A stretch of 64,000 nt of DNA from Clostridia bacterium (GTDB lineage: Bacteria > Bacillota > Clostridia > Oscillospirales > CAG-272). A program made the translations under genes and the position numbers. The stretch covers positions 33,087 through 97,086 of the forward strand of contig JAFTPF010000011.1 in assembly GCA_017463445.1 (NCBI GenBank). Direction: 5' to 3'. Below, in pieces: positions 1,261 to 60,080 of the stretch. The notes beneath the pieces are model-generated. The model was not told where the DNA came from, did no database searches, and saw only the letters and a program-made list of their open reading frames with translations. Every line of letters starts with the position of its first letter. Position 1 is the first letter of the stretch.

Positions 1261-4026
1261 ATGGCTACTAACAAGAAAAAAAAGAAAGCCCCCGCCAAAT
1301 CTCCCGCTAAAGCGACAGAACAGACGGAAAAAATCACTTCCCGCACTGCTCCCCGACAGGAAACGGAGCAGAATGAGCACAAAAACGATCCCGACAGTCT
1401 GGGCAATCTGATCGTCCTCTTTGCTCTGCTTACCCTGTCGATCCTCTCCTTTGTCTTCCTCTTCTTCACCGATCTGTCGGCAGGCACCGACGGCAACGCC
1501 GGACCTGTCGGGTACGCATTTTGCTGTATTCTCTTCGGACTGCTGGGACCCTCGGCGTATTTGATCCCCTTCGCTCTGCTGTATCTGGTGATCTTCCGGG
1601 GCAGAAGTCTGCGACAAAACACTTATCTGCTGAAATTCGTCTCGGCTTTTCTCTTCGTCTTGCTGATCTCCACCGCCTTCCAGCTGTGGATACAGAATTC
1701 CTCGTCCTTGGGTCTTTCCACCCTCTGGTCCCGCGGCATTGACGGAAACGGCGGCGGCGTTCTGGGCGGTTTGATCGGCGGATTCCTGTATATGCTGATG
1801 AAAAAAGCGGCGTGGTTTATTCTGGCTCCCTGCATTCTGGTGAATATCCTGCTGCTGGCAGAGGTAACCCCCTCCATGATCACCCGTTTCTTCCGTAGAC
1901 TTGCCGCCAACCTGCGGGCCTATATGGCATCCCGTACCGAAGAAGAGGACGAGCCCGAGGAAGTGGAAAAGCCTACTCCTCCCAAAAAGAAAAAGAAGCC
2001 CACGGAAGAGGAGGAGCCGGTACAGGCGAAGCCCTATACCGCGCCGATCCCGCCTCCCGAAAAGCCTAAGCGCAAGGTATTCGGCGTAGAGGACGAGCCT
2101 GCCCCCGAACCCACTATGGAGGTTCCTGCGGTAGAAATGAAGCCGGTAGAGGTGGCAAACCCCATGGGCGATCCCGTGGTGGTCAATACCGCCACCGGCG
2201 AGGTTTTGGAGCCGGTCTACGCCTCCGCCGCCGCGTCGGGCTCCTCCACGGGCGAGCTGACGCTCACCGACATTTACGTCTCCCCCGAGAGCGACGAGGC
2301 CGCCGACCGTCTTGCGCAAGAGATGGAAAACCAGCGTCACCGCGCCCTCGGCGAACACAACGCCGCCGAGCTGGATATGTCCGATGAGGATCGCGCCCCG
2401 TGGGAGGATCCCATCGCGCCCGGTACAGGCACCGAACCGCTGACCCCCGAGGAAGAGGAGGTTGCCGCCTTCCTGCTGGACACCACCCGCGAACCGATCG
2501 CAGAGGAAACGCTGCCCGATTACGCCGTGGAGGAAACCAAGCCCATTTATCGCTTCCCGCCTCTCTCCCTGCTCTCACAGAACATCAATCTCCGGGCGGA
2601 GGACAACAGCGAGGAGCTGCGCCGCAACGGCGAAAAGCTGGTCTCTGTACTGCGCTCCTTCCGCGTATCCACCGAGATCGTGAACATTTCCCACGGTCCC
2701 ACCATCACCCGTTACGAGCTTGCCCCCAAGGAGGGCGTGCGCGTCCGTGCCATCGCCAATCTGGTAGACGACATCGCTCTGAATCTGGAGACCTCGGGCG
2801 TGCGCATCGAAGCGCCCATCCCCGGCAAAGCCGCCGTGGGCATCGAGGTTCCCAACAAGTCCGCCGCTACCGTCTATCTTCGGGAGCTTTTAGAAAACTC
2901 CACCTTCGAGAACTCCAAGAGTAAGGTGACCTGCGCGCTGGGTATGGACGTTGCCGGCGATCCCGTGTATCTGGACATTGCCAAGATGCCTCACCTGCTC
3001 ATCGCAGGTGCTACCGGTATGGGTAAATCGGTCTGCATCAACTCGCTGATCGTTTCCCTACTCTACAAAGCTTCCCCCGACGAGGTCAAGCTGATCCTCA
3101 TCGACCCCAAAAAGGTGGAGCTGAACGTCTACAACAAGCTCCCCCACCTGCTGGTTCCCGTTGTAAACCTGCCCAAGAAGGCGGCAGGCTCCCTGTCCTG
3201 GGCGGTGGGCGAAATGGAGCGCCGCTTCGAGCTGATCGAGGAAGTGGGCGTGCGCGACATCAAGGGCTACAATCAGATCACCGCAAACGATCCTCAAAAG
3301 GAATATCTCCCCCACATCGTCATCATCATCGACGAGCTTGCCGACCTGATGATGACCGCCCCCGACGACGTGGAAGAGTCGATCTGCCGTCTGGCGCAAA
3401 AGGCCCGTGCGGCGGGTATGCACCTGATCATCGGTACCCAGCGTCCTTCGGTAGACGTCATCACCGGTCTGATCAAGGCGAACATTCCCTCCCGAATCGC
3501 CTTCACGGTAGCCTCTAACGTGGACTCCCGTACCATCATTGACGTTGCCGGCGCAGAAAAGCTGATCGGCCGCGGTGATATGCTCTACGCGCCCGTCGGT
3601 GCCATGAAGCCTATCCGCGTACAGGGCTCCTTCGTCTCTGACAAGGAGGTGGAAGCGGTCTGCGACTTCATCCGCGCACAGGCAGGCGAGGGCGAGTACA
3701 GCTCCGATATTATGGAACAGATCGACAAAAACGCCGAACAATGCGGACAGAAGAAGAAATCCGGCTCTGCCGACCTGTCTGCGGGTGACAGCGACGACGG
3801 CGAGATCGATCCCAAATTCAACGACGCTGTGGAGGTTGCTCTGGAAATGGGCAAGATCTCTACATCCCTCCTCCAGCGCCGCCTGAATCTGGGCTACGGA
3901 CGAGCCGCTAAGATCATCGACCGTATGCAGGCCTGCGGCATCGTCAGCGAGCCCGACGGTCAGAAGCCCCGCAACGTCCTCATCTCCCGCTCAGACTGGA
4001 ATGAGATCAAGATGCGAAGTGAGTAA
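1261..4026 (+). CDS. ftsK: DNA translocase FtsK/SpoIIIE family
   Basis: 921 aa. It has a Lys-rich N-terminus, TM segments and a Pro/Glu-rich linker. The motor domain carries Walker A GATGMGKS and IIIDELADLM, followed by a C-terminal winged-helix gamma-like tail. Confidence 0.93.
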   Translation: MATNKKKKKAPAKSPAKATEQTEKITSRTAPRQETEQNEHKNDPDSLGNLIVLFALLTLSILSFVFLFFTDLSAGTDGNAGPVGYAFCCILFGLLGPSAYLIPFALLYLVIFRGRSLRQNTYLLKFVSAFLFVLLISTAFQLWIQNSSSLGLSTLWSRGIDGNGGGVLGGLIGGFLYMLMKKAAWFILAPCILVNILLLAEVTPSMITRFFRRLAANLRAYMASRTEEEDEPEEVEKPTPPKKKKKPTEEEEPVQAKPYTAPIPPPEKPKRKVFGVEDEPAPEPTMEVPAVEMKPVEVANPMGDPVVVNTATGEVLEPVYASAAASGSSTGELTLTDIYVSPESDEAADRLAQEMENQRHRALGEHNAAELDMSDEDRAPWEDPIAPGTGTEPLTPEEEEVAAFLLDTTREPIAEETLPDYAVEETKPIYRFPPLSLLSQNINLRAEDNSEELRRNGEKLVSVLRSFRVSTEIVNISHGPTITRYELAPKEGVRVRAIANLVDDIALNLETSGVRIEAPIPGKAAVGIEVPNKSAATVYLRELLENSTFENSKSKVTCALGMDVAGDPVYLDIAKMPHLLIAGATGMGKSVCINSLIVSLLYKASPDEVKLILIDPKKVELNVYNKLPHLLVPVVNLPKKAAGSLSWAVGEMERRFELIEEVGVRDIKGYNQITANDPQKEYLPHIVIIIDELADLMMTAPDDVEESICRLAQKARAAGMHLIIGTQRPSVDVITGLIKANIPSRIAFTVASNVDSRTIIDVAGAEKLIGRGDMLYAPVGAMKPIRVQGSFVSDKEVEAVCDFIRAQAGEGEYSSDIMEQIDKNAEQCGQKKKSGSADLSAGDSDDGEIDPKFNDAVEVALEMGKISTSLLQRRLNLGYGRAAKIIDRMQACGIVSEPDGQKPRNVLISRSDWNEIKMRSE

Positions 4027-4031
4027 AGTGC

Positions 4032-4127
4032 CCAAGGGCTCTGCCCTTGGATCCCGGCAGGAACCCTTTTAAAAAAGGGTTCCTGCACCTCCTAAAACTT
4101 TCATAAAAGCCGACAAATCCTTGTCGG
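4032..4127. repeat. mosaic hairpin element, inverted orientation (modules P1-P2-linker-P3)
   Basis: Hairpins are CCAAGGGCTCTGCCCTTGG (4032-4050), CAGGAACCCTTTTAAAAAAGGGTTCCTG (4058-4085) and GCCGACAAATCCTTGTCGGC (4108-4127). The linker is CCTCCTAAAACTTTCATAAAA. The same modules recur at six other loci. Confidence 0.8.
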
Positions 4128-4189
4128 CCGGGAAATAACATACTCAAAACTTTTCGCAAAGGAAATATGGTATTCATTATAATTCCTTT

Positions 4190-4265
4190 CCCAAAAGTTC
4201 TTGAAAATTCAAAAACCTACTTACAAGAAGGTTTTTGGCAGGGGTTTGGGGACAGCGTCCCCAAA
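4190..4265. repeat. partial second mosaic copy (linker motif plus two hairpins)
   Basis: CAAAAGTTCTTGAAAA is the linker motif, also seen at 18916-18944 in reverse complement. AAACCTACTTACAAGAAGGTTT and TTTGGGGACAGCGTCCCCAAA (4245-4265) are hairpins. Confidence 0.6.
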
Positions 4266-10010: not shown

Positions 10011-11192
10011 ATGACCGATAAGACTCCTTTCGTCTATCTGGACAACAGTGCCACCACCGCCCTCTGCCCCGAAGCAGAGGGCGCTATCCAACAAGCAATC
10101 GCCTGCTACGGAAATCCGTCTTCCCTGCACGCCATGGGACAGACCGCCCGCAAAACGGTGGAGACAGCACGCAAGCAGCTTCTTTCTGCATTGGACGTGC
10201 GCCTGCCCGACACCCGCCGGGTGATCTTCACCTCCTGCGGCACCGAAGCGAACAATATGGCGGTCTACGGCGTGATCCGCGCCAAGAAATTCCGATTCCT
10301 GCCCCGCATCGTCACCACCGACAGCGAGCATCCCTCGATTCTGGAGCCCCTCCGTGATCTGGAAAGCCGCGGCGAGGCAGAGGTGATCCGTCTTTCCACC
10401 AAGGGCGGCAGGATCGACCTTGCCGAGCTGGATGCCGCGCTCAACGAGCGGACCGTCTTGCTCTCGATCATGCTGGTCAACAACGAGACCGGCGCCGTCT
10501 ACGACGTGGCATCCGCTTTTCATCTGGCTAAACGGAAGCTCCCCACAATCCTGACCCACACCGATCTGACCCAAGGCTTTCTGAAGGTGCTTCCCAAGGG
10601 AGGCTACGATAAGCTGGGCGCCGATCTGATCACGGTCAGCGGACACAAGATCCACGCGCCCAAGGGCGTGGGAGCGCTGATCGTTTCGGCAGATCTGCTA
10701 AGGTCCAAGCGATTGGTCCCCTACCTCTACGGCGGCGGACAGGAGGGCGGTCTGCGATCGGGCACTGAAAACGTGATGGGCATCGCCGCGCTGGGTGCCG
10801 CTGCGAAAGCAGGAAAGTCCACCGCCTCCGATGACATCGCCCGGATGACAGTCCTGCATAGCACTTTCGTAAACGCGCTCCCCGATACCGTTCGAGTGAA
10901 CGCACCTGCCGTCTGCGCAGCTCCTCATATCATCAGCCTCACCCTCCCACGTATCAAGAGCCAATCTGCCCTCAACGCCCTTTCCGCGAAAGGGATCTGC
11001 GTCTCCAGCGGCTCAGCCTGCTCCTCTCACGGCGGACACGGCAGTTACGTCCTGCTCGCCTATGGTCTTCCTCCCGAGGAAGCCGACTGCACTCTGCGGG
11101 TCAGCCTGTCCCGCTATACCACCGAACATGAGCTTCTCACTGCCGCTGAGGCGATCCGAGAAGTCTGTGATACGATGATTCACATTAAATAA
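10011..11192 (+). CDS. cysteine desulfurase (class V aminotransferase, NifS/IscS-like)
   Basis: 393 aa. The PLP-lysine context SGHKIHAPKGVGAL and the C-terminal active-site SSGSACSS are present. Confidence 0.88.
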   Translation: MTDKTPFVYLDNSATTALCPEAEGAIQQAIACYGNPSSLHAMGQTARKTVETARKQLLSALDVRLPDTRRVIFTSCGTEANNMAVYGVIRAKKFRFLPRIVTTDSEHPSILEPLRDLESRGEAEVIRLSTKGGRIDLAELDAALNERTVLLSIMLVNNETGAVYDVASAFHLAKRKLPTILTHTDLTQGFLKVLPKGGYDKLGADLITVSGHKIHAPKGVGALIVSADLLRSKRLVPYLYGGGQEGGLRSGTENVMGIAALGAAAKAGKSTASDDIARMTVLHSTFVNALPDTVRVNAPAVCAAPHIISLTLPRIKSQSALNALSAKGICVSSGSACSSHGGHGSYVLLAYGLPPEEADCTLRVSLSRYTTEHELLTAAEAIREVCDTMIHIK

Positions 11193-11211: not shown

Positions 11212-12453
11212 ATGAGACTGAAGCTCCTTGCCCTCCTGTTGACCATCGCGACACTGGTTCCTGCCATTGTAGGATGCACCGGCACGACAACTGAGGTAAC
11301 AACGCAAGCCTCCGCCGAAGACACCGCCGCCACTACAAAGGCTCCCGAGGACGAAGAACCAGAGGTGCGCACCACCCAGTTTGCGGAACCTGCGCTTGAA
11401 TTGATCCATACGATCATTGACGATTACTGGATCTCCAGAAGCCAGACCCTTCGCGAAGAGCGGGGCAGCAGTGCGACCGCCTTCGCCTGGAGTTACGCTT
11501 CTTTTCTGGAAGCACTCTCCGAAGCATATCGCCTCTATCCCAACGATTCTAAGGTGGCTCAGACCTACCTGAGCGCATTGGAAGGCATAGAAGCGTATGC
11601 CGTCTCCACCACGATCACCGCACCCTCCGGCAGACACAAGGTTACTTATTATAACGCCAGCAAGGGCGGCAGCGGCGATTATTATTACGATGACGACGCA
11701 TGGATCTGCATCCAGTTTTTGACTGCCTACGAGCTTTTGGGCGACAAACAGTATCTGGAGAGAGCCGAGAAGACGCTGGAATTTCTGTGGACCGGTTGGG
11801 ACGATGTTCTGGGCGGCGGTATCTACTGGGACAAGACCTATGGCAGCAAGAACACCTGCGCCAACGGTCCTATCGCCATCGCATTCCTGTGGGCATATCA
11901 GTTGACCGAAAATACCGATTATCTTGCCAAAGGCGCCGCCATCTACGACTGGACGTACAATACACTGCGGGACGGCAGTCTGTACAACGACAGCATGGGC
12001 AAGGACGGCGGCAAAAACACCTGGAAGGCGGCGTACAACCAGGGCGTTATGATCTACGCCGGCGCACAGATGTATGAGATCACCGGCGATGAAACCTACT
12101 TGAAGCAAGCACGCTCCACTACCAACGCCTCCCTCAGCCTGATGTTCTCCGGCAGCGGCAGCAACACCAAGATGAAGGATAACCCCATCTACAAGGGTTG
12201 GTGCATCGGCTGGCTGACCCGCGGCTATCTGAAATACTATTCGGTAGATTCCAGAAAGAGCACTACTTCCATGAAAATGCTGGAAGCAGTACTGGTCAAT
12301 ACGCTGGAGACCAAAGACCGTAGCGGCTACTACGATCCCTATTTCTGCAACGAGAACGCTTGGTCCTCGGAATCCCGAACCTGCATCCTGCAGCCTGCCG
12401 GCGTCTGCTCCGTGCTATTCTTGGCCGCTTACTACGATTTGATATTGAAATGA
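11212..12453 (+). CDS. glycoside hydrolase family 76 (alpha-1,6-mannanase-like) lipoprotein, paralog 1
   Basis: Lipobox LVPAIVGC and a Thr-rich linker. DYYYDDDAWICIQFL holds the adjacent Asp pair characteristic of GH76. LEFLWTGWDDVLGGGIYWDK is also present. Confidence 0.8.
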   Translation: MRLKLLALLLTIATLVPAIVGCTGTTTEVTTQASAEDTAATTKAPEDEEPEVRTTQFAEPALELIHTIIDDYWISRSQTLREERGSSATAFAWSYASFLEALSEAYRLYPNDSKVAQTYLSALEGIEAYAVSTTITAPSGRHKVTYYNASKGGSGDYYYDDDAWICIQFLTAYELLGDKQYLERAEKTLEFLWTGWDDVLGGGIYWDKTYGSKNTCANGPIAIAFLWAYQLTENTDYLAKGAAIYDWTYNTLRDGSLYNDSMGKDGGKNTWKAAYNQGVMIYAGAQMYEITGDETYLKQARSTTNASLSLMFSGSGSNTKMKDNPIYKGWCIGWLTRGYLKYYSVDSRKSTTSMKMLEAVLVNTLETKDRSGYYDPYFCNENAWSSESRTCILQPAGVCSVLFLAAYYDLILK

Positions 12454-12658: not shown

Positions 12659-13924
12659 ATGAAAAAGAAACTTTTGGCCGCTCTGCTGGCGGTCGCCTCC
12701 CTGCTCCCCCTGGCAACGGCTTGCACCGGTTCCGATGCAGAGGTCACTACTGAAGGAACCACCACCACGACCGAAGCTGTAACGACCACCGTTCCCACCC
12801 CCTCCACCCCCCTCCCTTCCGACCAGTACGAGTCTCAGTTTGCTGAGCCTTCCTACAAGCTGATGCGCCAGATCATCAAGGATTACTGGCGTACCACCAC
12901 GCTCCGCACCGACCTGACCAGCTCCAACGCTGCTGTCGTTTGGGGATTTGCAGGCTTTTTAGAAGCGGTCGCCGAGGCGTACCGTCTCTTCCCCGACGAT
13001 GTGACCATCGAAAGAGCCTACAGAAACGCTCTGACTAAGGGCATCACGCAATACAAGGTCACCAATGCTACCATCACTGCGCCCACCGGCGACTACAAGG
13101 TCTCCTACTACAACGCAGGCAAGGGCGGATCGCGCGACTACTATTACGACGACGACGCTTGGATCTGCATCCAGTTTTTGAACGCCTACGAGCTTCTGCA
13201 AGATGAACAGTTCCTTGCTGAGGCCGAGGAGACGCTGGAATTCCTCTGGACCGGCTGGGACGATGTTCTGGGCGGCGGTATCTACTGGGATAAGTCCTAC
13301 AGCGGTAAGAACACCTGCGCTAACGGTCCTGTTGCCATCGCCTTCTTGTGGGCATATCAGCTGACCCAGAAGGAAGAATATCTGGAAAAAGGCAGAATGA
13401 TCTACGATTGGTGCCGTGAAAAACTGCTGGACGGTGACCTTTACATCGACAGCCTGGGCGTAGACGGCGGCAGAAACAACTGGAAAGCCGCTTACAACCA
13501 GGGTACCATGATCTACGCAGGCGCACAGCTCTACGAGATCACCGGCGACGAGACCTACCTGACGCAGGCGCGTGCCACAAACAAAGCAACGATCAGCCTG
13601 ATGTTCACCGGCAGAGGCTCCTCCACAAGAATGAACGGCAACCCTATTTACAGATCCTGGTGTATCGGCTGGCTGGTCCGTGGCTTTATGAAGTTCTACT
13701 CGGTTGATCCCGAAAAGGATACGACCGCTATGGATAATATGGCAGTGGTCCTCAAGCGCACTCTGAAGACCCAGAACAAGAAGGGCTACTACGATCCCTA
13801 CTTCTGCACCGGCGACTGGGCAAGCGAGTCGACTACCGACGTTCTCCAGCCCTGCGGCGTAGCATCGGTACTTCTGCTGACTACTTATTTCGAAGATTTC
13901 ATGGCAGCTAAAAACGCTGAGTGA
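12659..13924 (+). CDS. glycoside hydrolase family 76 lipoprotein, paralog 2
   Basis: Lipobox LPLATAC and a Thr-rich linker. It is collinear with 11212..12453 and shares identical blocks DYYYDDDAWICIQFL, LEFLWTGWDDVLGGGIYWDK and YEITGDETYL. Confidence 0.8.
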   Translation: MKKKLLAALLAVASLLPLATACTGSDAEVTTEGTTTTTEAVTTTVPTPSTPLPSDQYESQFAEPSYKLMRQIIKDYWRTTTLRTDLTSSNAAVVWGFAGFLEAVAEAYRLFPDDVTIERAYRNALTKGITQYKVTNATITAPTGDYKVSYYNAGKGGSRDYYYDDDAWICIQFLNAYELLQDEQFLAEAEETLEFLWTGWDDVLGGGIYWDKSYSGKNTCANGPVAIAFLWAYQLTQKEEYLEKGRMIYDWCREKLLDGDLYIDSLGVDGGRNNWKAAYNQGTMIYAGAQLYEITGDETYLTQARATNKATISLMFTGRGSSTRMNGNPIYRSWCIGWLVRGFMKFYSVDPEKDTTAMDNMAVVLKRTLKTQNKKGYYDPYFCTGDWASESTTDVLQPCGVASVLLLTTYFEDFMAAKNAE

Positions 13925-13940
13925 GCCCTCCTCTTTTAAA

Positions 13941-14130
13941 AAAGAGTCCGAACATTCGGACTCTCAGACTGAAGACAAAGTCTACCCCTTCCGCTGGCAC
14001 CAGCCAAGGAAAGGGGTAGGAGGTCTGGAGGAAGGGGGAAAACTTCGGCGTTTGAGATGGTTTCCCCCTTCCTCCAGTTCTTGAAACAATTTTGTCTACA
14101 CTTTGAGAGTCCGAACATTCGGACTCTTTT
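13941..14130. mobile_element. MITE-like non-coding element with ~37-bp imperfect terminal inverted repeats
   Basis: The ends are AAAAGAGTCCGAACATTCGGACTCTCAGACTGAAGAC (left) and GTCTACACTTTGAGAGTCCGAACATTCGGACTCTTTT (right, inverted). The interior holds a perfect 17-bp stem, CTGGAGGAAGGGGGAAA...TTTCCCCCTTCCTCCAG. It has no coding capacity. Confidence 0.6.
13991..14065 (-). repeat. dispersed ~70-nt repeat, copy A
   Basis: The minus strand reads GGAAACCATCTCAAACGCCGAAGTTTTCCCCCTTCCTCCAGACCTCCTACCCCTTTCCTTGGCTGGTGCC. It aligns with copies at 19106-19165 and 60649-60724. Confidence 0.75.
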
Positions 14131-18856: not shown

Positions 18857-19215
18857 ATCGTGGGGCGCTGCCCCACACTCCGCCAAAGAACCTTCTTGTA
18901 AAAAGGTTCTTTGGAATCTCCAAGAACTTTTGAAAAGCCCCGCAAATACTTGCGGGGCTTGATTTTTTGAAATCTATTCCCTCCAACTTGTAGGGACAGG
19001 CGTCCTCGACTGTCCCGTTTGCAAAGGGATCGCTCTGTGAAAATCCTTAGAAATCCAAGGAAGCAATTTCGCCTGCGTCGAAATTGTAATCTGAGAAGGG
19101 GAGAAGAAACCATCTCAGACGCCGAATGTTTCAGACTCTTTCCCTCATCCACCTTGGCTGGCGTGTCGAGAGACTGATAGTAAGATGATGGGGCTGTAAA
19201 ACAAGTTTTTTCCAA
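18857..19215. repeat. ~360 bp non-coding mosaic of hairpin modules plus dispersed-repeat copy B
   Basis: Hairpins lie at 18860-18876, 18884-18915 (P2), 18945-18970 (P3), ~19003-19030 (GGGACAG...CTGTCCC) and ~19064-19086 (CAATTTCG...CGAAATTG). Repeat copy B lies at 19106-19165. Confidence 0.75.
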
Positions 19216-19347
19216 CTCAGAGGGAACCTTAAAATTACCGAAAAGTCATTGCTAAAGTGAACATTTCATCTTTTGCAGTGGCTTTTTCTTTAATTTTCTT
19301 TTCTTATAGCCCTTATGCGGCGATTTCTTTTTTACGGCTTATTTTAT

Positions 19348-19854
19348 TTAATAAGGGAATATGTCTACCATTGCCAAAACAGAATCATTAATATAGTACG
19401 TCGCACAAATATGACAACCGGTTACCCCACTGTGGCTGAATTCAATACGATCGCCCATAGAGTTTTGGTATATTAAATTGCCTTGACTGTCTTCTTCGAT
19501 AAAAGTAAAGCAAGAACTGCGATTAGTATCTATGCGTCCTTCTAAAATCTCTATATTCGAGACTTCAACATCAAATGTTTGCCAAGTAAAATTTGATATT
19601 GTAATTGGACTCAACGCACCTAACGTCTTATATGCACGACTATACGTGCAGTTTGGATACCAAGTACCGGAACAATCTAATTCTTTATTCCATTCGTTGT
19701 ATGTTAAATAAGCTTTTGCCTGCGAATTTTCACTCCATTTGTATTTTATAATTCTGCAGACGTGGTCATAAGCGATCTCGTCAGAAGTGGTCTCGCTTTG
19801 GCATGAAGGTAAAATCATACATACCATTAATAAACAAAATAAAACTCTTTTCAT
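19348..19854 (-). CDS. lipoprotein, unknown function (AT-rich island)
   Basis: Signal peptide with lipobox ILPSC. The protein is Cys-rich and the gene is AT-rich. Confidence 0.6.
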   Translation of the reverse strand: MKRVLFCLLMVCMILPSCQSETTSDEIAYDHVCRIIKYKWSENSQAKAYLTYNEWNKELDCSGTWYPNCTYSRAYKTLGALSPITISNFTWQTFDVEVSNIEILEGRIDTNRSSCFTFIEEDSQGNLIYQNSMGDRIEFSHSGVTGCHICATYYINDSVLAMVDIFPY

Positions 19855-20024
19855 ACATAATCCCCCCCAAAAAAGACGTGAATTTTACTAATCTTCCGAT
19901 ACAATGTTACCCAGGCACTTCTCCTGGGATTTTACAGTCATTTGACATCTCCTTAGTTTGTTGAAAAACTAAGAGTACATCGGTTGCACACAGCTTTATA
20001 ATTTCAAAAATTAATATTATCCCT

Positions 20025-20357
20025 TTATTTTCCAAATGAAATAACTTTATTCCCTTGCCATGTAAGGTTGCCAATATCCCCCGGTACCCACGTGTTGTTC
20101 GATTTAGCCATCAAGCGAAGGCGTTCACCATGAGAGGTTTCAAAAACAAAATACATTTCAATTGGGCCGAATAATTCATCGGTTATTTTTTGTTTTTCCA
20201 ACAGCTTGGCTTCTGCTGTTTGGATAGGCTGTTTGGCATTCTCGCTATTTCTATAACTGATTGCAATTAGTGCGAATAATCCCGATAGAATCGCAATCCC
20301 AAACAGAACTCCCAAAAAAATCGTTAAGTCATCGGTTGTGATATTTTCAATATCCAT
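20025..20357 (-). CDS. DUF2500 (YhhM-like) membrane-anchored protein
   Basis: It has an N-terminal TM. The C-terminal PGDIGNLTWQGNKVISF matches the GD.G.L...G.r..sF ending of E. coli YhhM-type DUF2500. Confidence 0.6.
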   Translation of the reverse strand: MDIENITTDDLTIFLGVLFGIAILSGLFALIAISYRNSENAKQPIQTAEAKLLEKQKITDELFGPIEMYFVFETSHGERLRLMAKSNNTWVPGDIGNLTWQGNKVISFGK

Positions 20358-20400
20358 TTACATTTTCCTCCATAATAAAATGCGTATTTTCTCATTATGT

Positions 20401-20673
20401 TTAAGATGGTTTGACAAAGAATGAACCGATTAATGCTACTGCTCCTATCAAGATAGCCGCGACACCGATTACTGAGCACATTTCAGCCACATCTTCACCT
20501 TTTTCGTTTCCTCCGATATAACCCGTGTCGGTTATGACATATTCGCCGTCAATCACCGCACCCATTTGAACACTCTGCGGCTGAGTTGCTTCTTCGATGT
20601 TTCCTGCCATAGAGGCGATAAAAATACCACCCACAAGCAGTATAACGCCCAAAAATCGCAATAATACCTTCAT
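20401..20673 (-). CDS. small two-TM membrane protein
   Basis: 90 aa with hydrophobic N- and C-terminal segments. Confidence 0.5.
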   Translation of the reverse strand: MKVLLRFLGVILLVGGIFIASMAGNIEEATQPQSVQMGAVIDGEYVITDTGYIGGNEKGEDVAEMCSVIGVAAILIGAVALIGSFFVKPS

Positions 20674-20795
20674 AAAGATCTCCCTTTCTTAAATTTTGAT
20701 CCGCGCTGCTGATCTTTAACACAATTATAGCACAAAAATGTGCTAAAGTCAAGCATAATGTTGAATATTAACACAAAATATTGTGGGGTAGATGA

Positions 20796-21050
20796 ATGAA
20801 GATCTATGATTATAATGGTAAGAAGAATATTTGCGGAGAACGAGTCAGATTGGCACGCCAAATGCGTAAAATGTCTCAGAGCGACCTTGCTGCTAAATTA
20901 CAGGTTGAAAATGTCATTATCGAACGAGATAGTGTGAGCCGTATAGAAGCTGGAACGCGTTTTGTTACAGATTACGAATTGAAAGTGTTGTCCAAAGTAC
21001 TTCGTGTAAGCATTATGTGGTTAATTGATGAAGAAGAATTGACTGTATGA
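20796..21050 (+). CDS. XRE-family helix-turn-helix transcriptional regulator
   Basis: 84 aa. The HTH is RLARQMRKMSQSDLAAKLQVENVIIERDSVSRIEAG. It is divergent from the three small membrane or lipoprotein genes. Confidence 0.8.
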   Translation: MKIYDYNGKKNICGERVRLARQMRKMSQSDLAAKLQVENVIIERDSVSRIEAGTRFVTDYELKVLSKVLRVSIMWLIDEEELTV

Positions 21051-21056
21051 ATATAC

Positions 21057-21251
21057 AAACCGCCTTGCAAATATTTGCAAGGCGGTTTGCTTACAATTCG
21101 AACGCCGACGAGTACTCGTCGGCGTTTTCATAAAGTTTTCGGAGTCCAGAACCCTTTTTCAAAGAAGGGATGGAGTTGCCTCAACGAGGCAACTCCGGCA
21201 ATTCGGCTTTGCCGAATTGCATGGGTGGGGTTCCAAGGGCAGAGCCCTTGG
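21057..21251. repeat. six consecutive hairpin modules filling a convergent intergenic gap
   Basis: Hairpins lie at 21057-21088, 21101-21126 (CGACGAGTACTCGTCG core), ~21152-21169, 21172-21196, 21198-21220 and 21233-21251. The last is the exact reverse complement of 4032-4050. The linker TTCATAAAGTTTTCGGAG lies at 21127. Confidence 0.8.
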
Positions 21252-23486
21252 TCAATTATTCCGATAATAATTCATCAGACAGCCGTCCAGGAGGATCTGG
21301 CGGTCGCCGGCGGGGAGGGCTTCCAGCAGGAAGGTGAAGGGGGCGGCTGCGCCGTCGTGGATGATGTAGGCGGGGACTTCTACGGCATCGGAGGCGAGGA
21401 GCTCGCGGATGTTCGGGATGAAAATGTAGTCGTCTACCGCCACGGGAAGATCACCCTTGTAGGTCAAGGGGAGCATACCCCAGTTGATCAGGTTGGAGCG
21501 GTAACGCTTGGTGGCGTACTCCTGCGCGATGTTGGCAAGACCGCCCAGCACACGCTGACAGGATGCCGCCTGCTCACGGGCAGAGCCGTCACCGGGCTTC
21601 AGCGCGCAGACCACCGAGCCCAGCATGATGGAGTCGGCGGGGGCATTGCTGACGGTGGCAACGGCGGCGTAAACCTCGTCCAGTTCGGCAATGTGCTTGC
21701 CGGCGAGACGGTCGGCCTCGGCGGTGCGGACTGCCTTCGCCTTGCCCACGTATGCGGGATCCTTTCTCGACAGCGCAAAAGAGGACAGCTTCTCGGGATT
21801 AGAACGGTAGGAGGAGGTGTCGCCCGAGGGGATCAGTTCGTCGGTGGTGGTGACGGGGTCGTTGATGATGGTCACCGCTTTCAGAAGCAGATTGTCGGCG
21901 GGAGCGTTCATCTTGGGCCAGTCGGCGATGTTGGGACCGAAGACCAGCTCGGTCTCGGGCTTGGCTTTGCCATAGCCGTTGTAAACGCGATTGTCGTAAA
22001 CGGTCTTGTCAAAGTTGTAGCAGGGAGTGGTGTAGGAAACGTCCAGCTCGGTGGCGGGGGTCAGCACGCCGCCGTTTGCTGCGGTGGCGGCGATGGAGCG
22101 GGAGTCCATGAGGGCAACTGCCGCGATCTGGTTGTCGCCGGGCTTGGAGCCTTCGCGGTTGGGGAAGTTACGGGTGGAGTGCCGGATGGACAGACCGCCG
22201 TTGGCGGGAACGTCGCCTGCGCCGAAGCAGGGACCGCAGAACGCCGAGCGGAGGGTCGCGCCTGCAGAGATCAGATCTGCCGCGGCTCCCGCACGGATCA
22301 GCTCCAGCATCACGGGCTGAGAAGCGGGGTAAACAGACAGCGAGAATCTGCCCGCGCCGGTGGATGCGCCGCGAAGAATGTCGGCGGCGGCGATGAGGTT
22401 ATCGAAGGTACCGCCCGCACAGCCTGCGATGACACCCTGATCTACGTAGAACTTGCCGTCCACGAACTTGGACTGCAGGTTCAGCCGTCCCTCGGGGATG
22501 CCCAGCTGATTCACCGCGTCTGCCTCGCACTTTGCCAGCAGCTCAGGAGCGTTTTTCAAAAATTCCTTGATGGTGTATGCGTTGGAGGGGTGGAAGGGGA
22601 GCGCAATCATGGGCTCTACCTTGTCGAGATCGATTTCCACCATGCCGTCGTAGTAGGCGGGGGAGGTGGGGGAGAGCTTCTTGTAGTCTGCCGCTCTGCC
22701 GTGGAGGGCGAGGTACGCCTCGGTCGCCTCGTCGGTCTCCCAGATGGAGGAGAGACAGGTGGTCTCGGTGGTCATCACGTCGATGCCGTTACGGAACTCC
22801 ATAGGCAGGTTATGTACGCCCTCGCCGATGAACTCCAGCACCTTATTCTTCACAAAGCCGGATGCGAAGACCGCACCGATCAGCGCGATGGCAACGTCCT
22901 GGGGTCCCACGCCGATCCGGGGCTTGCCGCTCAGCTTGACCGCGATGACGTCGGGGTAAGCGATGTCGTAGGTTCTGCCCAGCAGTTGCTTTACCAGCTC
23001 GGGACCGCCCTCGCCGATCGCCATAGTGCCGATGGCACCGTAGCGGGTGTGGGAGTCGGAGCCCAGCAGCATCTTGCCGCAGCCTGCGAAGGATTCGCGC
23101 ATATAAGAGTGGATGACCGCCTGATGGGGAGGCACAAAGATGCCGCCGTACTTCTCCGCAGCGGAAAGACCAAACATATGGTCATCCTCGTTGATGGTTC
23201 CGCCAACGGCACAGAGGGAGTTGTGACAGTTGGTCAGGACGTAGGGGAGGGGAAATTCCTTCAGACCCGACGCGCGGGCAGTCTGGATGATACCAACGTA
23301 GGTGATATCGTGGGACGCCATTGCGTCGAATTTGATCTTCAGTCTGTCGTCATTTCCCGAGGTGTTGTGGGAAGTGAGGATAGAGTACGCCATAGTGTTC
23401 TTCTTGGCGTCGGATGCGGATAAATTGGACTTGTCCGAAATGGTGCCGTTTTCGTAGAAAACGCCGTTCTTGGTGAGTTTGATCAT
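21252..23486 (-). CDS. aconitase-family hydratase (aconitate hydratase)
   Basis: 744 aa. The Fe-S ligand contexts LLGSDSHT and FCGPCFG are present, and a swivel-domain C-terminus. Confidence 0.85.
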
Positions 23487-24394: not shown

Positions 24395-24614
24395 ATGCAT
24401 TTGGGGCTCTGTCCCCCGCTAAACTTTCTTGAAAAAAAGTTTGGATCAGAAGATCCCCTGCCCGACGAATACTCGTCGGGCAGGGGATCTTCTTTGATAT
24501 TCTTTTATAAATTGCACATACTGATAATAATCACAATCTGCCGGGCAAGTATTTGCCCGGCTTCATAAAAGTTTTAGAAGGGGTTTGGGGGAACCTTTTT
24601 CAAAAGGTTCCCCC
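24395..24614. repeat. mosaic hairpin element (P4-P3-linker-P2)
   Basis: A perfect 21-bp stem with a 4-nt loop lies at 24448-24493. GCCGGGCAAGTATTTGCCCGGC lies at 24540-24561. The linker TTCATAAAAGTTTTAGAAGG follows. GGGGGAACCTTTTTCAAAAGGTTCCCCC lies at 24587-24614. Confidence 0.85.
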
Positions 24615-25525: not shown

Positions 25526-27637
25526 TTACTGCTTTTTCTTCTTGATCACAACTACCGCGATCACGGCGATAACCACCACAGCGGCAGCTACGCCAATCAC
25601 GATAGGCAGCACGGAGCCGTCCTCTTCTGCAGAGTCGTCGGTGGTACCGGTATCGTTATCGGATGCACCGTTGGTTACGGTGGGTGCCTTGGTGGTTACG
25701 GGAGCCTTAGTGGTAGTGGTCGCGGGCTCATCGGTCACCACGGGATCGGTGGGATCCTCGGTTGCAGGAGGATCCACAGGATCGGTGGGATCGGTGGGAT
25801 CCTCGGTTGCAGGGGGATCTACAGGATCGGTAGGATCGGTAGGATCCTCGGTTGCTGGGGGATCTACAGGATCGGTGGGCTGACCGTCATAGTTATAGAG
25901 CTCCAGCTCTGCAGCAGATACAGCTCCGCCGCCCCAGTTTGCACAGTTTACTTCCCAACGGTAGTAGGTGTATGCTGCAGGCTCGTCAACCTCGTACATA
26001 GCGGTGCCGTTATTCACACAGCCCATACCACCCATACCGCGGTCAACGTCGTCGATGATAGTATAGGTCTTGCCGTCGTTGGAGCCCAGCAGAGTCCAGG
26101 ATGCGGGAACACGGCAGTAATCGAAGCTGTCTTCCCATGCAGTGGTGATCGCATAGTTGGTAATAGTGGTAGGCTCGGTGGTCTGCCAGGTTACGAAAGC
26201 GGTGATGCCGTTGCCGCCCATCTTGGTATCTTTCTTGCCGTCGAACAGATTGGTAACAGCGCCGTCGGGCCACATACCCTTGTTGACTGCGATGGTAGCT
26301 TGGTCGATCTTGTCGGTCAGGAGAGTGCCGTCAGCTGCGATGGTAGCCGCAACATCGGGAGCCAGCATATCGGTGTCGGTGGGAACAGTGGTCTTGAATG
26401 CGAGAACCTGTTCAATGGCCTTTGCGGTAGCACCGGTGAAATCCTCGGTAGCGGAATACTTGACCACAGGCTTTACAGCGTCGCCGCCGTCACGCTCCAT
26501 GTAGGCAGCGGTGATGGTGTAGGTCTTGCCTGCTTCCAGCTTGATGGAAGAGGTGTACCAGGTCTCGGATGCATTGTTGTAGGTGCGCTCTGCCCACAGC
26601 TCGTATACGCGGGTATCGTCGATCTGGATCATCAGACCGTTGTCAACCTTGGTGGTACCAAACAGGTAGTAACCGGTCTCGGCAACGGTGAAGGTACCTT
26701 CGTACAGGTTGATGTAGGATTCGTCTGCGGGAGCAGGAGTCCAGGGAGTGATGGTGGGAGTCACAACAGTACCGCCGATCTGCTGAGAAGTAGCCAGCAG
26801 ACCTTCGATGGTCTCGTCGTAGTAAGCGGTATTATCGCCGCACTGAGAGTTGTCGCCGCCCTCAAGATCGTCGCCTGCAGCCGCAAATACCTTTACGTAA
26901 GGATGGTTAGTGTTGCCGGGATCGCCCCAACGGTCGGCCTTGTTGTGGTAGCAGTCTACGGACAGATCAAAGGTCAGACCCAGTTCTGCCAGAGATTTGA
27001 ACTCGGTAGAGTCACCCACGTAGCCGCCGATTTCCAGAGCGTCACCGCCGGTGAGCTCCAGGAACCAGATGTTCACGTCATAGGACTCGCCTGCTTTTAC
27101 AGTGATCGAACCCAGATCGCTGGCAAGATCGGCAGCCTCGGCTTTCAGCCAGTGAGAGGAGCCCCACCATTCGTAGTAACGGGTGTCGTCCATTTCGAAC
27201 ACAAAGCCGTTATCGATCTTGTTGGCAACCAGAGTGAAGGTCAAGTCCCTGGAAGCGGTCATAGTACCGGTCCAGTTCAACATATAGTTATTACCGTTGG
27301 GAGCGCCCAGAGTGCCGGTTACCAAGCTGTCGCCGTCCAGCTGGAAGGTAGTGGTCTTCACCGCTTCTTCATTAGTCTTGCGGGACCAGTACATCAGCTC
27401 GTCGATAGTCTGGTCGAAACGGTGCATATTTCTGTAATCGGCCATTTCGCCGTCACCGTCATTGCCGAAGATCTTTTTATAAGCGTCGTCCCAAGCTGCG
27501 GTATTGGCCACCAACTGGTATGAGGTCTGGGACAGACCGTCAACAGTAGTAGCGGTTTCTGCTGCGTTGACTGAAAAGGCGGAAGCCATAGACAGCATCG
27601 TAGCAGTTGCAAGAATTGTTGCAAGTGTCTTTTTCAT
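25526..27637 (-). CDS. secreted multi-domain surface protein: PA14-like repeats, F5/8 type C (CBM32-like) domain, Pro/Thr/Asp repeats and a C-terminal TM anchor
   Basis: Signal peptide MKKTLATILATATMLSMASAFSVNA. The DNGF/LxxxxDDTRxYExW blocks are PA14-like (inference). The discoidin-like segment is NLFDGKKDTKMGG...WTLLGSNDGKTYT...YYRWEV...AAELELY. PTDPTDPVDPPATED occurs three times. The tail is VIGVAAAVVVIAVIAVVVIKKKKQ. Confidence 0.75.
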   Translation of the reverse strand: MKKTLATILATATMLSMASAFSVNAAETATTVDGLSQTSYQLVANTAAWDDAYKKIFGNDGDGEMADYRNMHRFDQTIDELMYWSRKTNEEAVKTTTFQLDGDSLVTGTLGAPNGNNYMLNWTGTMTASRDLTFTLVANKIDNGFVFEMDDTRYYEWWGSSHWLKAEAADLASDLGSITVKAGESYDVNIWFLELTGGDALEIGGYVGDSTEFKSLAELGLTFDLSVDCYHNKADRWGDPGNTNHPYVKVFAAAGDDLEGGDNSQCGDNTAYYDETIEGLLATSQQIGGTVVTPTITPWTPAPADESYINLYEGTFTVAETGYYLFGTTKVDNGLMIQIDDTRVYELWAERTYNNASETWYTSSIKLEAGKTYTITAAYMERDGGDAVKPVVKYSATEDFTGATAKAIEQVLAFKTTVPTDTDMLAPDVAATIAADGTLLTDKIDQATIAVNKGMWPDGAVTNLFDGKKDTKMGGNGITAFVTWQTTEPTTITNYAITTAWEDSFDYCRVPASWTLLGSNDGKTYTIIDDVDRGMGGMGCVNNGTAMYEVDEPAAYTYYRWEVNCANWGGGAVSAAELELYNYDGQPTDPVDPPATEDPTDPTDPVDPPATEDPTDPTDPVDPPATEDPTDPVVTDEPATTTTKAPVTTKAPTVTNGASDNDTGTTDDSAEEDGSVLPIVIGVAAAVVVIAVIAVVVIKKKKQ
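25743..25879. repeat. in-frame 45-nt tandem repeat (about 3 copies) encoding PTDPTDPVDPPATED
   Basis: Direct reading of GGATCGGTGGGATCCTCGGTTGCAGGAGGATCCACAGGATCGGTG-like units. Confidence 0.8.
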
Positions 27638-30947: not shown

Positions 30948-31002
30948 AATATCCTCCTGATATTTTGACAAAGTCGCTGCGAGACTCTGCCGATTCATAA
31001 TT

Positions 31003-37051: not shown

Positions 37052-37227
37052 GCTCCGCCGACTTAAAACCCCTTCATGTAAGAAGGGGTTTTAAGAATCT
37101 ACCAAAAGCTTTATGAAAGCGCCGCAAATACTTGTGGCGCTTCGTTCTTCTCCCGCTCGACGAGTATTCGTCGGGCTTTTTCAAAAGTTTTTGGGGTCTT
37201 AGGGGGGCTTTTTTCAAAAAGCCCCCT
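37052..37227. repeat. mosaic hairpin element (terminator hairpin, P3, P4, linker, P2-variant)
   Basis: Hairpins lie at 37052-37085, 37117-37140 (CGCCGCAAATACTTGTGGCG), ~37152-37176 (CGACGAGTATTCGTCG) and 37201-37227 (AGGGGGGCTTTTTTCAAAAAGCCCCCT). The linker is CAAAAGTTTTTGGGG. Confidence 0.8.
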
Positions 37228-37235
37228 AATTTAAC

Positions 37236-42858: not shown

Positions 42859-43053
42859 GGGGAACTTTTTGAAAAAAGTTCCCGAGAGTTCGCCCATATG
42901 GGCGAACTCTGAACCCCTTCAAAAACTTCCTGATAGCGCGGCAAATACTTGCCCACGCCATTATTTTCTTGTCTCGCAAGCATTTGCGAAACATTTATAA
43001 AAGTTTTTGGAGGGAGTCAAAAGGGGAACCTTCTTTCAAGAAGGTTCCCCCTT
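42859..43053. repeat. back-to-back pair of mosaic elements sharing a central P3 hairpin
   Basis: The order is P2 (42859-42883), hairpin AGAGTTCGCCCATATGGGCGAACTCT (42885-42910), inverted linker, P3-like (42936-42958), forward linker TTTATAAAAGTTTTTGGAGG, then P2 (43021-43053). Confidence 0.8.
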
Positions 43054-43057
43054 AAAA

Positions 43058-58039: not shown

Positions 58040-58095
58040 ACGGACACCTCCCTTGATTCTGTAATCAGCATAGAACATACTTTTTAACAAGTCAA

Positions 58096-58545
58096 TCAAT
58101 GATGCATTCTCTGCGCAGCCTTTAAAACATACACCGTATTGATTGTATATACGGTTGCTACTACGGCAACGATCAAGAAATATATTTGAAATTCAAAAAA
58201 TACCCTGTATAATACTACGGATCCAAATAAAACAAACCACATTGAAATGGATACAACCGACATGATCGTTATCAAAATGATTGATTTGTGTTTCAGCTTG
58301 GTATTTGTGTGCACCTTTCCGTCCGTTTCGTCTTTTAACCATTCATAGCAATTCAGATAGTAAATGTCTGTCCACATCAAAAAGGCGGTGATCAGCAACA
58401 AAACAACAACGGGAGGTATTGCCTTGATGATAACTCCCGCCAGTACCGTAAATGTTGCCATCGCTACAGTCATCAAAGAAGATATCACCAGCATGATCAT
58501 CGTTATAGTCTTTGCGGTGTTGTGTTTCATTTCTTCCTCCATCAC
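58096..58545 (-). CDS. four-TM membrane protein, unknown function (AT-rich island)
   Basis: 149 aa with four hydrophobic segments. Confidence 0.5.
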   Translation of the reverse strand: MMEEEMKHNTAKTITMIMLVISSLMTVAMATFTVLAGVIIKAIPPVVVLLLITAFLMWTDIYYLNCYEWLKDETDGKVHTNTKLKHKSIILITIMSVVSISMWFVLFGSVVLYRVFFEFQIYFLIVAVVATVYTINTVYVLKAAQRMHH

Positions 58546-58565
58546 TCAGCAAACAAAGCTATCTA

Positions 58566-59108: not shown

Positions 59109-59233
59109 ATTACGTTTCCTCCTTTTGCCGTGTTGTTGAAGATGAGTTTACCTTTCTTGGCTTCAGTATAGCATAAACCGAGTAATTTGTCAATGAAACG
59201 AAACCCACTTGCGATGCAAGTGGGTTTCAGAGA

Positions 59234-59668: not shown

Positions 59669-59789
59669 TTGGTTTGAGCTCCTTTGGCGGTATTAATGGA
59701 GGCGAATTTTCCTTATTATAGCATACTTGCGACTAAACGTCAACTATCAACGCAACGGGCAAGCGATTACGTTCCGTTTATGCAGAGGA

Positions 59790-60004: not shown

Positions 60005-60080
60005 TGGCAGGGGCGCAAGGACTCGAACCCTGGACATGCAGTTTTGGAGACTGCCGTTCTACCAACTGAACTACACCCCT
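60005..60080 (-). tRNA. tRNA-Trp (anticodon CCA)
   Basis: Manual fold of the reverse complement. The acceptor is AGGGGTG/CGCCCCT. The D stem is GTTC/GAAC. The anticodon stem is GCAGT/ACTGC with loop CUCCAAA. The T loop is TTCGAGT and the CCA is encoded. Confidence 0.88.

Follow-up and report, generated by a model that had tools for sequence, protein, structure and literature searches.

The window and its three repeats

The window analysed here is a stretch of 64,000 nucleotides (nt) from a Clostridia bacterium (assembly GCA_017463445.1, contig JAFTPF010000011.1, positions 33,087 to 97,086), and it is ordinary chromosome carrying genes for FtsK, ParAB, SerRS, SpoIIE, Ddl and aconitase. Three of its intergenic regions each hold one copy of a short repeat, hereafter copies A, B and C, and this repeat family, which is probably a small mobile DNA element, is the subject of the present analysis. 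The 19-nt core of the repeat, AACCATCTCARACGCCRAA, occurs without mismatch at 14044-14062 (minus strand), 19108-19126 (plus strand) and 60655-60673 (plus strand), that is, exactly three times in 64 kb, while 0.11 occurrences are expected by chance and none of 100 shuffled sequences reached three. No fourth core was found in the window even when up to three mismatches were allowed. In a general repeat search, copies A and C were paired over 52 nt (79%) and copies A and B over 27 nt (89%). A preliminary description of this DNA had proposed a dispersed family of three intergenic copies, built from the blocks CCATCTCAAACGCC, ACCTCC and TTCCTTGGCT with a C/T-rich tract and sharing no open reading frame (ORF). 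The blocks are all present, the copies are all intergenic and the count of cores bears out the family; as for reading frames, the core length ranges from 62 to 148 nt across 98 distinct copies and is spread over all three mod-3 classes (44/29/25), so no frame is conserved and a small protein can be set aside.

A covariance model was built from 29 copies, and since these include A, B and C, their match to it is by construction (E-values 9e-22 for A, 1e-15 for C and 8e-12 for B). The model found no further copy in the window, the next match (E = 0.036) being an unrelated hairpin. Moreover, no Rfam 15 family matches the copies at gathering or relaxed thresholds, the relaxed hits at copy A being chance microRNA-type hairpins far under threshold, and only two tRNAs were detected in the window; a known RNA family is thereby ruled out.

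Anatomy of the core and covariation of its hairpin

An intact copy reads, from 5' to 3', R1, loop, Y1, turn, Y2 and tail. R1 is a purine-rich arm of 11-19 nt and Y1 a pyrimidine arm complementary to it, and between them sits a 19-nt loop, CCATCTCA(A/G/T)ACGCCGAAGT. A turn of 1-3 bases leads from Y1 to Y2, a second pyrimidine tract that is a mirror repeat of Y1, and Y2 is followed by the tail TCCTTGGCT (core form CCTTGGCT). The loop is invariant or nearly so in the 29 aligned copies and likewise in the matches of the scans described below, whose pattern fixes most loop positions and so cannot reveal variation there; the tail CCTTGGCT is invariant in the alignment (A2). The features of the three copies are given below by position in the window, and L-numbers, here and throughout, are labels of the compared genome and metagenome loci.

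13943-13964 (unstranded): left target copy, terminator hairpin AGAGTCCGAACATTCGGACTCT; 22-nt exact direct repeat with 14106-14127, A-tract kept and T-tract lost
13965-14105 (minus): copy A, intact 141-bp insert, 86.9 bits; absent from the orthologous spacer in L119, L120, L122 and L123
14091-14105 (minus): the element's 5'-end terminal inverted repeat, CAAAGTGTAGACAAA; 12 of 15 positions match CAGACTGAAGACAAA at the other end
14061-14077 (minus): R1 purine arm CTGGAGGAAGGGGGAAA; 17 of 17 Watson-Crick pairs with 14025-14041
14042-14060 (minus): invariant 19-nt loop CCATCTCAAACGCCGAAGT, from the alignment of 29 copies
14025-14041 (minus): Y1 pyrimidine arm TTTCCCCCTTCCTCCAG, Watson-Crick partner of R1
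14010-14023 (minus): Y2 CCTCCTACCCCTTT, candidate third strand; mirror of Y1, parallel to R1, third-strand code at 12-13 of 14 positions
14002-14009 (minus): invariant tail CCTTGGCT, which anchors the R1-Y2 register
13965-13979 (minus): the element's 3'-end terminal inverted repeat, TTTGTCTTCAGTCTG; counterpart of the 5'-end repeat
14106-14127 (unstranded): right target copy, terminator hairpin; T-tract kept, working plus-strand terminator
19086-19163 (plus): copy B, decayed deletion derivative of a long subfamily, 50.3 bits; stem unpaired
19093-19109, 19110-19131, 19132-19151 and 19152-19159 (plus): R1, start of the loop, turn plus Y2, and tail of copy B; Y1 missing
60633-60718 (plus): copy C, decayed, between the ArsR gene and HMA/P-type ATPase genes, 64.4 bits; tail at 60707-60714

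Copy A is a recent insertion, whereas copies B and C are old and decayed. Copy A has a complete stem (17 of 17 pairs), shows 12-13 of 14 triads and carries the two terminal repeats as well as a target duplication without mismatch; it folds at -77 kcal/mol, with z = -7.3 against shuffles (z = -6.7 for the other strand). Copy C has mismatches in its stem and a G-to-A change in the loop (GCCAAAG), together with a good R1-Y2 match. Copy B shares the loop variant GCCGAATGTTTC with the long subfamily L036, L067 and L098 and an upstream covarying hairpin with L098, and alignment with these three loci shows that it has lost Y1, the 3' arm, and two internal hairpins. As a consequence of this deletion its loop abuts CAGACTC, which is the ordinary turn plus the start of Y2 found in most copies. 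This junction had been read earlier as a half-copy of the GAGTCCGAA..TCGGACTC palindrome and as the sign of a mosaic; the palindrome beside copy A, however, lies outside the family, being the resident terminator that was duplicated on insertion.

Several local features accompany the copies. In copy A only, a purine tract, GGAAGGGGTAG at 13982-13992, is complementary to Y2, and the additional, perfectly paired hairpin thus formed would be a competitor of the triplex, while the relatives of copy A carry unrelated sequence at this position. Just upstream of copy B, at about 18993-19022, lies a hairpin, GTAGGGACAGGCGTCCTCGACTGTCCC, that recurs at 10490-10520 of L199 upstream of an element copy and may be a third repeat module or a subfamily flank. 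A second hairpin after CCTTGGCT was considered as a conserved part of the core; copies A, C and L071 have one, and it is not family-wide. Where copies of the family have extra hairpins, these sit at two places only: behind GCCGAAG within the 19-nt loop, or in the interval from Y1 to Y2. A pseudoknot between loop and tail, both invariant, is plausible. As well, a 209-nt unit that includes the element is tandemly duplicated in L061 (3765-4085), and L010 (6185-6380) and L081 (3241-3451) hold tail-to-tail inverted dimers in which two CCTTGGCT tails make a long hairpin.

Compensatory changes are abundant in the R1/Y1 helix. Among the 29 copies, 14 of 17 pairs show changes on both sides, 87.4% of the cells are paired against 72.2% after shuffling (no shuffle out of 500 reached the observed value), and the covariation score is 0.410 against 0.182, while registers slid along the helix score at most 0.244 with pairing of 50-70%. 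The 1036 pairs of 67 distinct stems comprise 1004 Watson-Crick (97%), 12 G.U and 20 A.C pairs; the stem arms are highly divergent among copies yet remain paired, while the loop and the tail stay fixed. The relative counts of G.U and A.C were also tried as an indicator of the functional strand and proved uninformative in that use.

A candidate third strand

Y2 is not a further hairpin arm; in the 5'-to-3' direction it repeats the sequence of R1, with C in place of G and T in place of A. The relation holds in a single register, with 74% agreement against 41-49% at five other offsets (15 equal-length copies), and since the invariant tail fixes this register, all copies can be compared without gaps. 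For a quantitative test, 70 distinct copies were placed in an artificial alignment with Y2 reversed, by which the parallel relation becomes a nested 'helix' for a pair counter. In this alignment, 77.5% of the R1-Y2 cells are consistent against 61.2% after shuffling (0 of 500 shuffles), 172 cells are changed on both sides against 74.5 ± 8.8, and the covariation score is 0.391 against 0.186, while slides of ±1-3 columns give 48-56% consistency and scores of at most 0.218. The signal nearly equals that of the Watson-Crick helix in strength.

The code from R1 to Y2 is G to C in 88% of cases, A to T in 62% and to A in 30%, and C to A in 51%. It is obeyed at 89-90% of purine positions in each of three architectures (copies free of insertions, copies whose extra hairpins separate the two pyrimidine tracts, and copies that have them in the loop), whereas random pairing of copies yields 61.5%. 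The tracts are of low complexity, and the background of the test is accordingly 61% in shuffles and 53% with shuffled letters. Because shuffle controls ignore relatedness, more weight was placed on the slide controls, on independent stems (L137, L193, L077 and L158) and on the persistence of the code across architectures; the slides and the many independent stem variants speak against an artefact of covariation. Copying by base pairing cannot yield a mirror repeat; that one is nevertheless kept up while the hairpin varies is thus a sign that a fold of three strands is under selection.

To judge by this covariation, the core looks built as an intrastrand triplex, in which one strand could fold back twice and lay a third strand in the groove of its own hairpin. 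The three blocks required, namely a purine block, its Watson-Crick pyrimidine block and a Hoogsteen-type third block, are all present. In the definitions used with the ITxF search (PMC4666352), a purine, pyrimidine, Hoogsteen order is class III and its complement (reverse-Hoogsteen, purine, pyrimidine) is class I, the purine motif; the core is thus class III on the R1-first strand and class I on the complementary strand. On the latter, the code reads G.G-C and A.A-T or T.A-T, which are canonical purine-motif triads. The pyrimidine motif, as in RNA, fits the code less well, as A opposite an A-U pair does not belong to that motif, and purine-motif triplexes do not form in RNA (PMC4666352). Like known intrastrand triplex repeats, the copies are intergenic and without strand bias; the short loops of 1-6 nt of the ITxF definition are found at the turn (about 1-3 nt) and not between the purine and pyrimidine blocks, where the loop is at least 19 nt.

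Insertion at transcription terminators

Comparison with related loci revealed filled and empty sites. The gene order GH76 - YpsA - methyltransferase - Ddl around copy A is kept in four relatives (L119, L120, L122 and L123; YpsA 74-87% identical), where the GH76-YpsA spacer of 152-196 nt holds one terminator hairpin followed by conserved TTTTATATTTTTTTCC and the YpsA promoter region. The corresponding spacer of the window is 317 nt long and contains a hairpin, 141 bp of insert, an identical 22-bp hairpin and the same T-tract. As the left hairpin has the A-tract and the right one the T-tract, both derive from the resident terminator. A second case is provided by two loci of one species, L109 (filled) and L194 (empty), which share a neighbouring gene at 98% identity and hardly differ in their flanks: the insert of L109 is 140 bp (CAGCCTGTCGAG...CGACACTCTG), and its 24-bp duplication, AGCCCGGCAAATCCTTGCCGGGCG, is the single terminator hairpin of L194. 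In addition, L197 and L198, from the two samples that also yielded the window strain, hold another intact copy with a 21-bp hairpin duplication. Duplications lie at fixed offsets from the element in copy A, L109, L066 and L197, and diverged ones were found in L043, L023, L077 and L032; in L031, an 85-bp direct repeat flanks the copy. The insertion site is thus a palindromic transcription terminator, and the whole hairpin of 21-24 bp ends up on both sides of the insert.

The full-length element measures 140-141 bp and ends in imperfect 15-bp terminal inverted repeats, 5'-CAG...CTG-3'. The CAG..CTG termini recur in L066, L109 and L197, where the motif CAGNNTGTCGANAAA is present at both ends (bounding form CAGNNTGTCGANAAA ... 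TTTNTCGACANNCTG). A short GC-rich subfamily (L010, L022, L044, L081 and L082) is without CAG..CTG ends and shows no terminal inverted repeats. The contig of L118 ends inside the element, which is consistent with an assembly break caused by the repeat.

Copy C also sits in a spacer that is empty elsewhere. Between ArsR and HMA the window has 177 nt, against 45-47 nt in L124, L125 and L130-132 (ArsR 88-97% identical) and 29 nt in L128 (ArsR 76% identical), so that the empty form occurs in relatives with ArsR 97% identical. In two further loci with ArsR 88% identical, the same spacer is occupied: in L127 (1867-2153) the copy is intact and its loop is the variant CAAATGCC, while L126 (1867-2126) holds a tail fragment followed by a second hairpin family described below. 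This spacer has either been hit repeatedly or lost its element in some relatives.

With a non-coding length under 500 bp, terminal inverted repeats, and target-derived direct repeats opposite empty sites in relatives, the element has the attributes of a MITE (miniature inverted-repeat transposable element), its target duplication being atypical in length (22, 24 and 21 bp) and in being palindromic. The palindrome-associated elements derived from IS200/IS605 have subterminal hairpins and neither terminal inverted repeats nor target duplications, and both of the latter are present here. As for REP/REPIN sequences, the element is much longer, GTAGAC occurs only in the terminal repeat of copy A, and the ORFs of the window hold no HUH domain. 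No neighbouring protein recurs across 54 loci compared all-against-all by their ORFs; a partner gene was accordingly rejected, since what the comparison gave was paralogous ABC ATPases and the like, whose distance from the element varies. The 40 window ORFs scanned contain no domain of a transposase, recombinase or reverse transcriptase, and a search of the window and the loci for an autonomous element with the same terminal repeats returned copies of the element only.

Distribution of the family

The preliminary description had made the family depend on further copies and compensatory changes, and had called for a scan of genomes and metagenomes and a test of base changes. Both were carried out: the scans brought the total to 98 distinct core sequences, about 100 copies beyond the window, and compensatory changes are plentiful in the hairpin (29 copies) and the third strand (70 copies). 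The genome scan, with a pattern of 15 specified bases, returned at least 116 stretches, of which about half are chance 15-mers in unrelated phyla and the remainder have the whole architecture. Among the matches listed, all those with full architecture come from gut metagenome-assembled genomes of Clostridia, Eubacteriales, Oscillospiraceae and 'Candidatus Flemingiibacterium'. The metagenome scan, with 19 specified bases, added 61 stretches, several of them labelled human gut. Taken as a whole, nearly all of the family lies in gut Clostridia, Eubacteriales and Oscillospiraceae genomes or in gut metagenomes, and the animal hosts of the samples include roe deer, sheep, goat, horse and humans. Single genomes carry at least 14 (JBJDZI01), at least 6 (JAFTOI01) and at least 5 (JAFTOC01) copies. 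When the window is compared with these genomes at the DNA level, only the repeats align (77-94%), plus one coding stretch at 76% and a tRNA, and the closest named relatives are called only 'Clostridia bacterium' or 'Eubacteriales bacterium'.

Both scan patterns demanded the conserved loop, and divergent members are under-sampled for this reason. One such member, in L109 (6400-6520), has the loop CCATCGGGGTGCCGAAG, an internal hairpin and the tail CCTTGGTT, from which it follows that loop and tail are not absolutely invariant and that pattern scans miss such members. No family match was found in the phage and plasmid collections. One IMG/VR contig, L199 (UViG_3300032167_001085), holds two copies, at 10561-10580 and 13925-13944; it is classed as viral, with a long ORF that may be a capsid gene. 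Phages are a possible route for the spread of the element between species. In the literature searched, where most subscription journals fall outside coverage, no description of the family was found, and only the enterobacterial triplex repeats are related.

Nature of the element and alternative explanations

The three repeats are probably small non-autonomous mobile DNA elements whose core is a putative intrastrand triplex and which insert at terminators, duplicating the terminator hairpins in the process. The family displays polymorphic insertions, inverted repeats at its termini, a duplicated target hairpin, covariation of a hairpin and of a register-specific third strand, no linked gene and no orientation bias. 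By this evidence the element is probably a miniature transposon carrying a triplex motif, and any function of it is putative. An enzyme encoded elsewhere in the genome and acting in trans might cut the target at the two feet of its palindrome, much as in the recognition or resolution of an extruded cruciform, and fill-in repair after the cuts would duplicate the palindrome. Selection might maintain the folded single-stranded core, most likely as a transient purine-rich DNA strand, with the invariant loop and tail serving as a sequence-specific recognition handle, most likely for the element's own propagation. For the host, the effect would be a longer 3' untranslated region (UTR) between the decapitated hairpin and the real terminator.

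An alternative that we regard as unlikely is that the core is a structured RNA carried by the mobile element, acting in cis in 3' UTRs or as a small RNA. Its fold would combine a hairpin, in whose major groove a pyrimidine triple helix forms (U.A-U, C+.G-C), and a loop-tail pseudoknot GCCGA:UUGGC, and might block 3'-to-5' decay like the ENE elements discussed below. The strong covariation of both hairpin and third strand suits this explanation, and so do the confinement of extra hairpins to the predicted connecting loops, the folding of copy A far beyond its shuffles on both strands, and the ability of loop GCCGA to pair with tail UUGGC, where the G-to-A change of copy C turns G.U into A-U. 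The element is, moreover, probably co-transcribed, since it lies between a hairpin without its T-tract and an intact terminator, and pyrimidine-motif intrastrand triplexes can form in RNA (PMC4666352). Orientation, on the other hand, argues against it: with genes called by third-position GC, upstream genes are in the same direction in 32 cases and opposite in 26, downstream genes in 32 and 37, and of the terminator-like sites that come after a copy, 16 are on the element's strand and 12 on the opposite one. A sense bias obtained earlier (33 versus 13) was an artefact of crude ORF calls and vanished with this gene calling and the terminator test. Neither copy A nor copy B has a promoter-like site, both of the 9-of-12 sites near C are located downstream of the repeat, and copy A is antisense to the sole gene able to read through it. 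In the stems, G.U pairs are rare (12 of 1036, against 20 A.C). The third strand has A at 30% of the A-U pairs and at C interruptions, a pattern better fitted by A.A-T, T.A-T and T.C-G on the complementary DNA, and many adjacent C+.G-C triples would require acidic pH. The lack of any Rfam match also counts against RNA. The balanced orientation, the missing promoters, the antisense position of copy A, the rarity of G.U and the third-strand code together favour a role at the DNA level. Of the interpretation first given to the repeat, the genuine dispersed family, its further copies and the covariation stand, the mosaic copy B does not, and the implied non-coding RNA is not favoured. A riboswitch or 5' leader, suggested by copy C upstream of a metal ATPase operon, was rejected as well, on account of the empty spacer in close relatives, the unrelated neighbours of other copies and the absence of orientation bias.

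Less likely still, in our estimate, is a host-level DNA structural element that spreads by recombination or template switching at hairpins and is kept for its effects on replication, recombination or plasticity, as proposed for TMECO. The TMECO loci are indeed more rearranged between strains and have no linked transposase (PMC4666352), and the tail-to-tail dimers, the 209-nt tandem duplication, the 85-bp direct repeat around the L031 copy and the GC-rich subfamily without terminal inverted repeats could all be accommodated, the more so as many flanking hairpins from the second dispersed family could supply homology. The duplicated hairpins of copy A and L197, however, are locus-specific and orthologous to the single hairpin of relatives, not to that of a donor, so capture driven by homology does not explain these two cases. 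The sharp ends with conserved CAG..CTG inverted repeats and the constant 140-141 bp in different genomes also speak against it. That the family is neutral junk, alike by common descent and structured as a by-product of low-complexity tracts, is very improbable, for although the third-strand test has a high background (61% in shuffles, 53% with shuffled letters) and copies B and C are visibly decaying, the arms differ greatly yet are 97% Watson-Crick, the third-strand relation holds in one register and in cis only, loop and tail stay fixed while stems vary, and no known copying mechanism makes a mirror repeat.

Several points weigh against a mobile element with a triplex core. Neither the window nor about 1.2 Mb of loci yielded an enzyme that could mobilise the element or an autonomous relative sharing its termini, and no well-documented precedent in the literature was confirmed for a palindromic duplication of 21-24 bp (perhaps 85 bp in L031). 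The GC-rich short subfamily without CAG..CTG ends implies that one insertion mechanism may not cover the whole family. The covariation from which the triplex is proposed was measured among related sequences, so that the shuffle controls overstate its significance. A triplex of TMECO was seen in single-stranded oligonucleotides and went undetected in duplex DNA and in dimethyl sulphate (DMS) footprinting in vivo (PMC4666352). The model, finally, leaves the role of the invariant loop and tail unexplained.

A more specific idea, which we offer tentatively and hold to be rather unlikely, is that the invariant loop and tail and the three covarying strands define a folded single-stranded nucleic acid, a triplex hairpin possibly locked by loop-tail pairing, which is the substrate of an undescribed structure-guided mobilisation. 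In it, palindromic terminators would be recognised as cruciforms or hairpins, not by sequence, and cut at both feet, by which the entire palindrome would become the target duplication. If true, transposition would here choose its targets in a novel way, and this would be the first case of intrastrand-triplex selection visible as three-way covariation.

Relation to known repeats

Intrastrand triplex repeats of enterobacteria have been known since the 1990s. The BoxC/PIT/TMECO repeats are reportedly treated as such by Hoyne et al. 2000, as cited via Holder et al. 2015. They are found in E. coli and about 260 other proteobacterial genomes, with function unknown (PMC4666352). They are the closest known kind: in common with the present family, they have three purine or pyrimidine blocks on one strand, the third mirroring the second, and are intergenic and multi-copy, without strand bias, with inverted pairs, with presence and absence among strains and with no linked gene or function (PMC4666352). 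The dimers of L010 and L081 in particular resemble the inverted TMECO pairs of E. coli. The present family is nevertheless not a member, as sequence, block order, loop length and conservation pattern differ. The TMECO consensus CCCTCNCCC-N3-6-GGGNGAGGG-N3-GGGNGAGGG has no match in the window; the block order is R-Y-H / RH-R-Y here and Y-R-RH in TMECO; there are 13-19 triads against 9; and the loop is 19 invariant nt, outside the 1-6 nt of the ITxF search, against 3-6 variable nt. In TMECO conservation is greater in the stems than in the loops; in the present family the loop is fixed, and it is the stems that change, in a covarying manner. The host phylum here is Firmicutes, and terminal inverted repeats and a target duplication are present, unlike in TMECO.

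Among MITEs, the Correia/NEMIS, RUP, ERIC and bcr1 families are examples. The present element resembles them in being shorter than 200 bp, non-coding, intergenic and polymorphic, in its long stem-loops and terminal inverted repeats, in the direct repeats of young copies and in having no transposase of its own. Unlike in the prokaryotic MITEs reviewed in PMC10969869, the duplication is a whole palindromic terminator of 21-24 bp and not a few bases, the internal loop and tail and not the termini are most conserved, the interior holds a three-strand motif, and no parent insertion sequence was identified. Terminator-type hairpins are likewise tied to SPRITE, another small dispersed repeat, which carries its own terminator-like hairpin, whereas those around the present element are part of the target site and are different at each locus.

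REP, BIME and REPIN sequences resemble the present family in being dispersed extragenic hairpins near gene ends, single or in inverted doublets, and in the proposed processing of their folded single-stranded DNA by one enzyme encoded elsewhere in the genome, a RAYT protein; they are defined by an imperfect palindrome of 20-40 bp, a conserved 5' GTAG and a RAYT gene in the genome. The present element differs by the lack of a 5' GTAG family signature, its much greater length and its third strand, and no RAYT gene was seen among the window ORFs. In the ENE of PAN, MALAT1 and transposon RNAs, a U-rich internal loop clamps an A-rich tail (U.A-U) near the RNA 3' end. The likeness lies in a third strand from the same molecule in a hairpin groove, and in some ENEs being carried by transposable elements; unlike them, the present family has G-rich triads, A in the third strand opposite A-U and no orientation bias. 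Long variable target duplications of tens of bp have been reported for IS1634, IS1549 and the IS1182 family, which are autonomous elements of 1.3-2 kb, and we know of no report that these duplications coincide with a palindrome.

Other repeats and features of the window

A second dispersed intergenic family occurs in the window at 4026-4251, 18861-18967, 21228-21257, 24540-24613, 37102-37232 and 42912-43068. It consists of up to three successive hairpins, namely a GGCAAGTATTTGCC-type terminator, AAGAACCTT...AAGGTTCTT, and TGGGGC...GCCCCA or CCAAGGGC...GCCCTTGG, and is common to many of the element-bearing genomes. After a ComEC-like gene it is present in L109 and L194 and absent from L195 and L197, and it looks like an insertion as well.

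Upstream of copy A, at 11212-12453 and 12659-13924, lie tandem GH76 (alpha-1,6-mannanase-like) lipoprotein paralogues with 75-81% DNA identity and a spacing of 1459 bp; this duplication is kept in L120 and L123 and not in L122. A 45-nt tandem repeat of three to four copies (89-96%) at 25742-25876 lies inside a gene for a PA14/GLEYA-domain protein, which has a paralogue at 29112-30998. In addition, two islands of low GC content (38-39% against about 55%), at 19200-21050 and 58000-59700, contain small ORFs mostly without Pfam matches. The first starts right after copy B and encodes a helix-turn-helix regulator and a DUF2500 protein, and the second adjoins a tRNA-Trp (60005-60080), about 600 nt before copy C.

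Implications

The copies of TMECO-kind repeats are nearly identical, and their sequences could therefore not show whether a three-stranded fold matters. In the present family the three tracts vary widely yet stay matched, which provides evolutionary evidence of selection on the fold itself. The duplication of a whole terminator hairpin around a 141-bp insert is unusual and points to recognition of the target by DNA shape. Annotators of these genomes should know the element, for confusion with a small RNA or riboswitch is possible. For its hosts, copy C illustrates that the element can separate a regulator from its operon.

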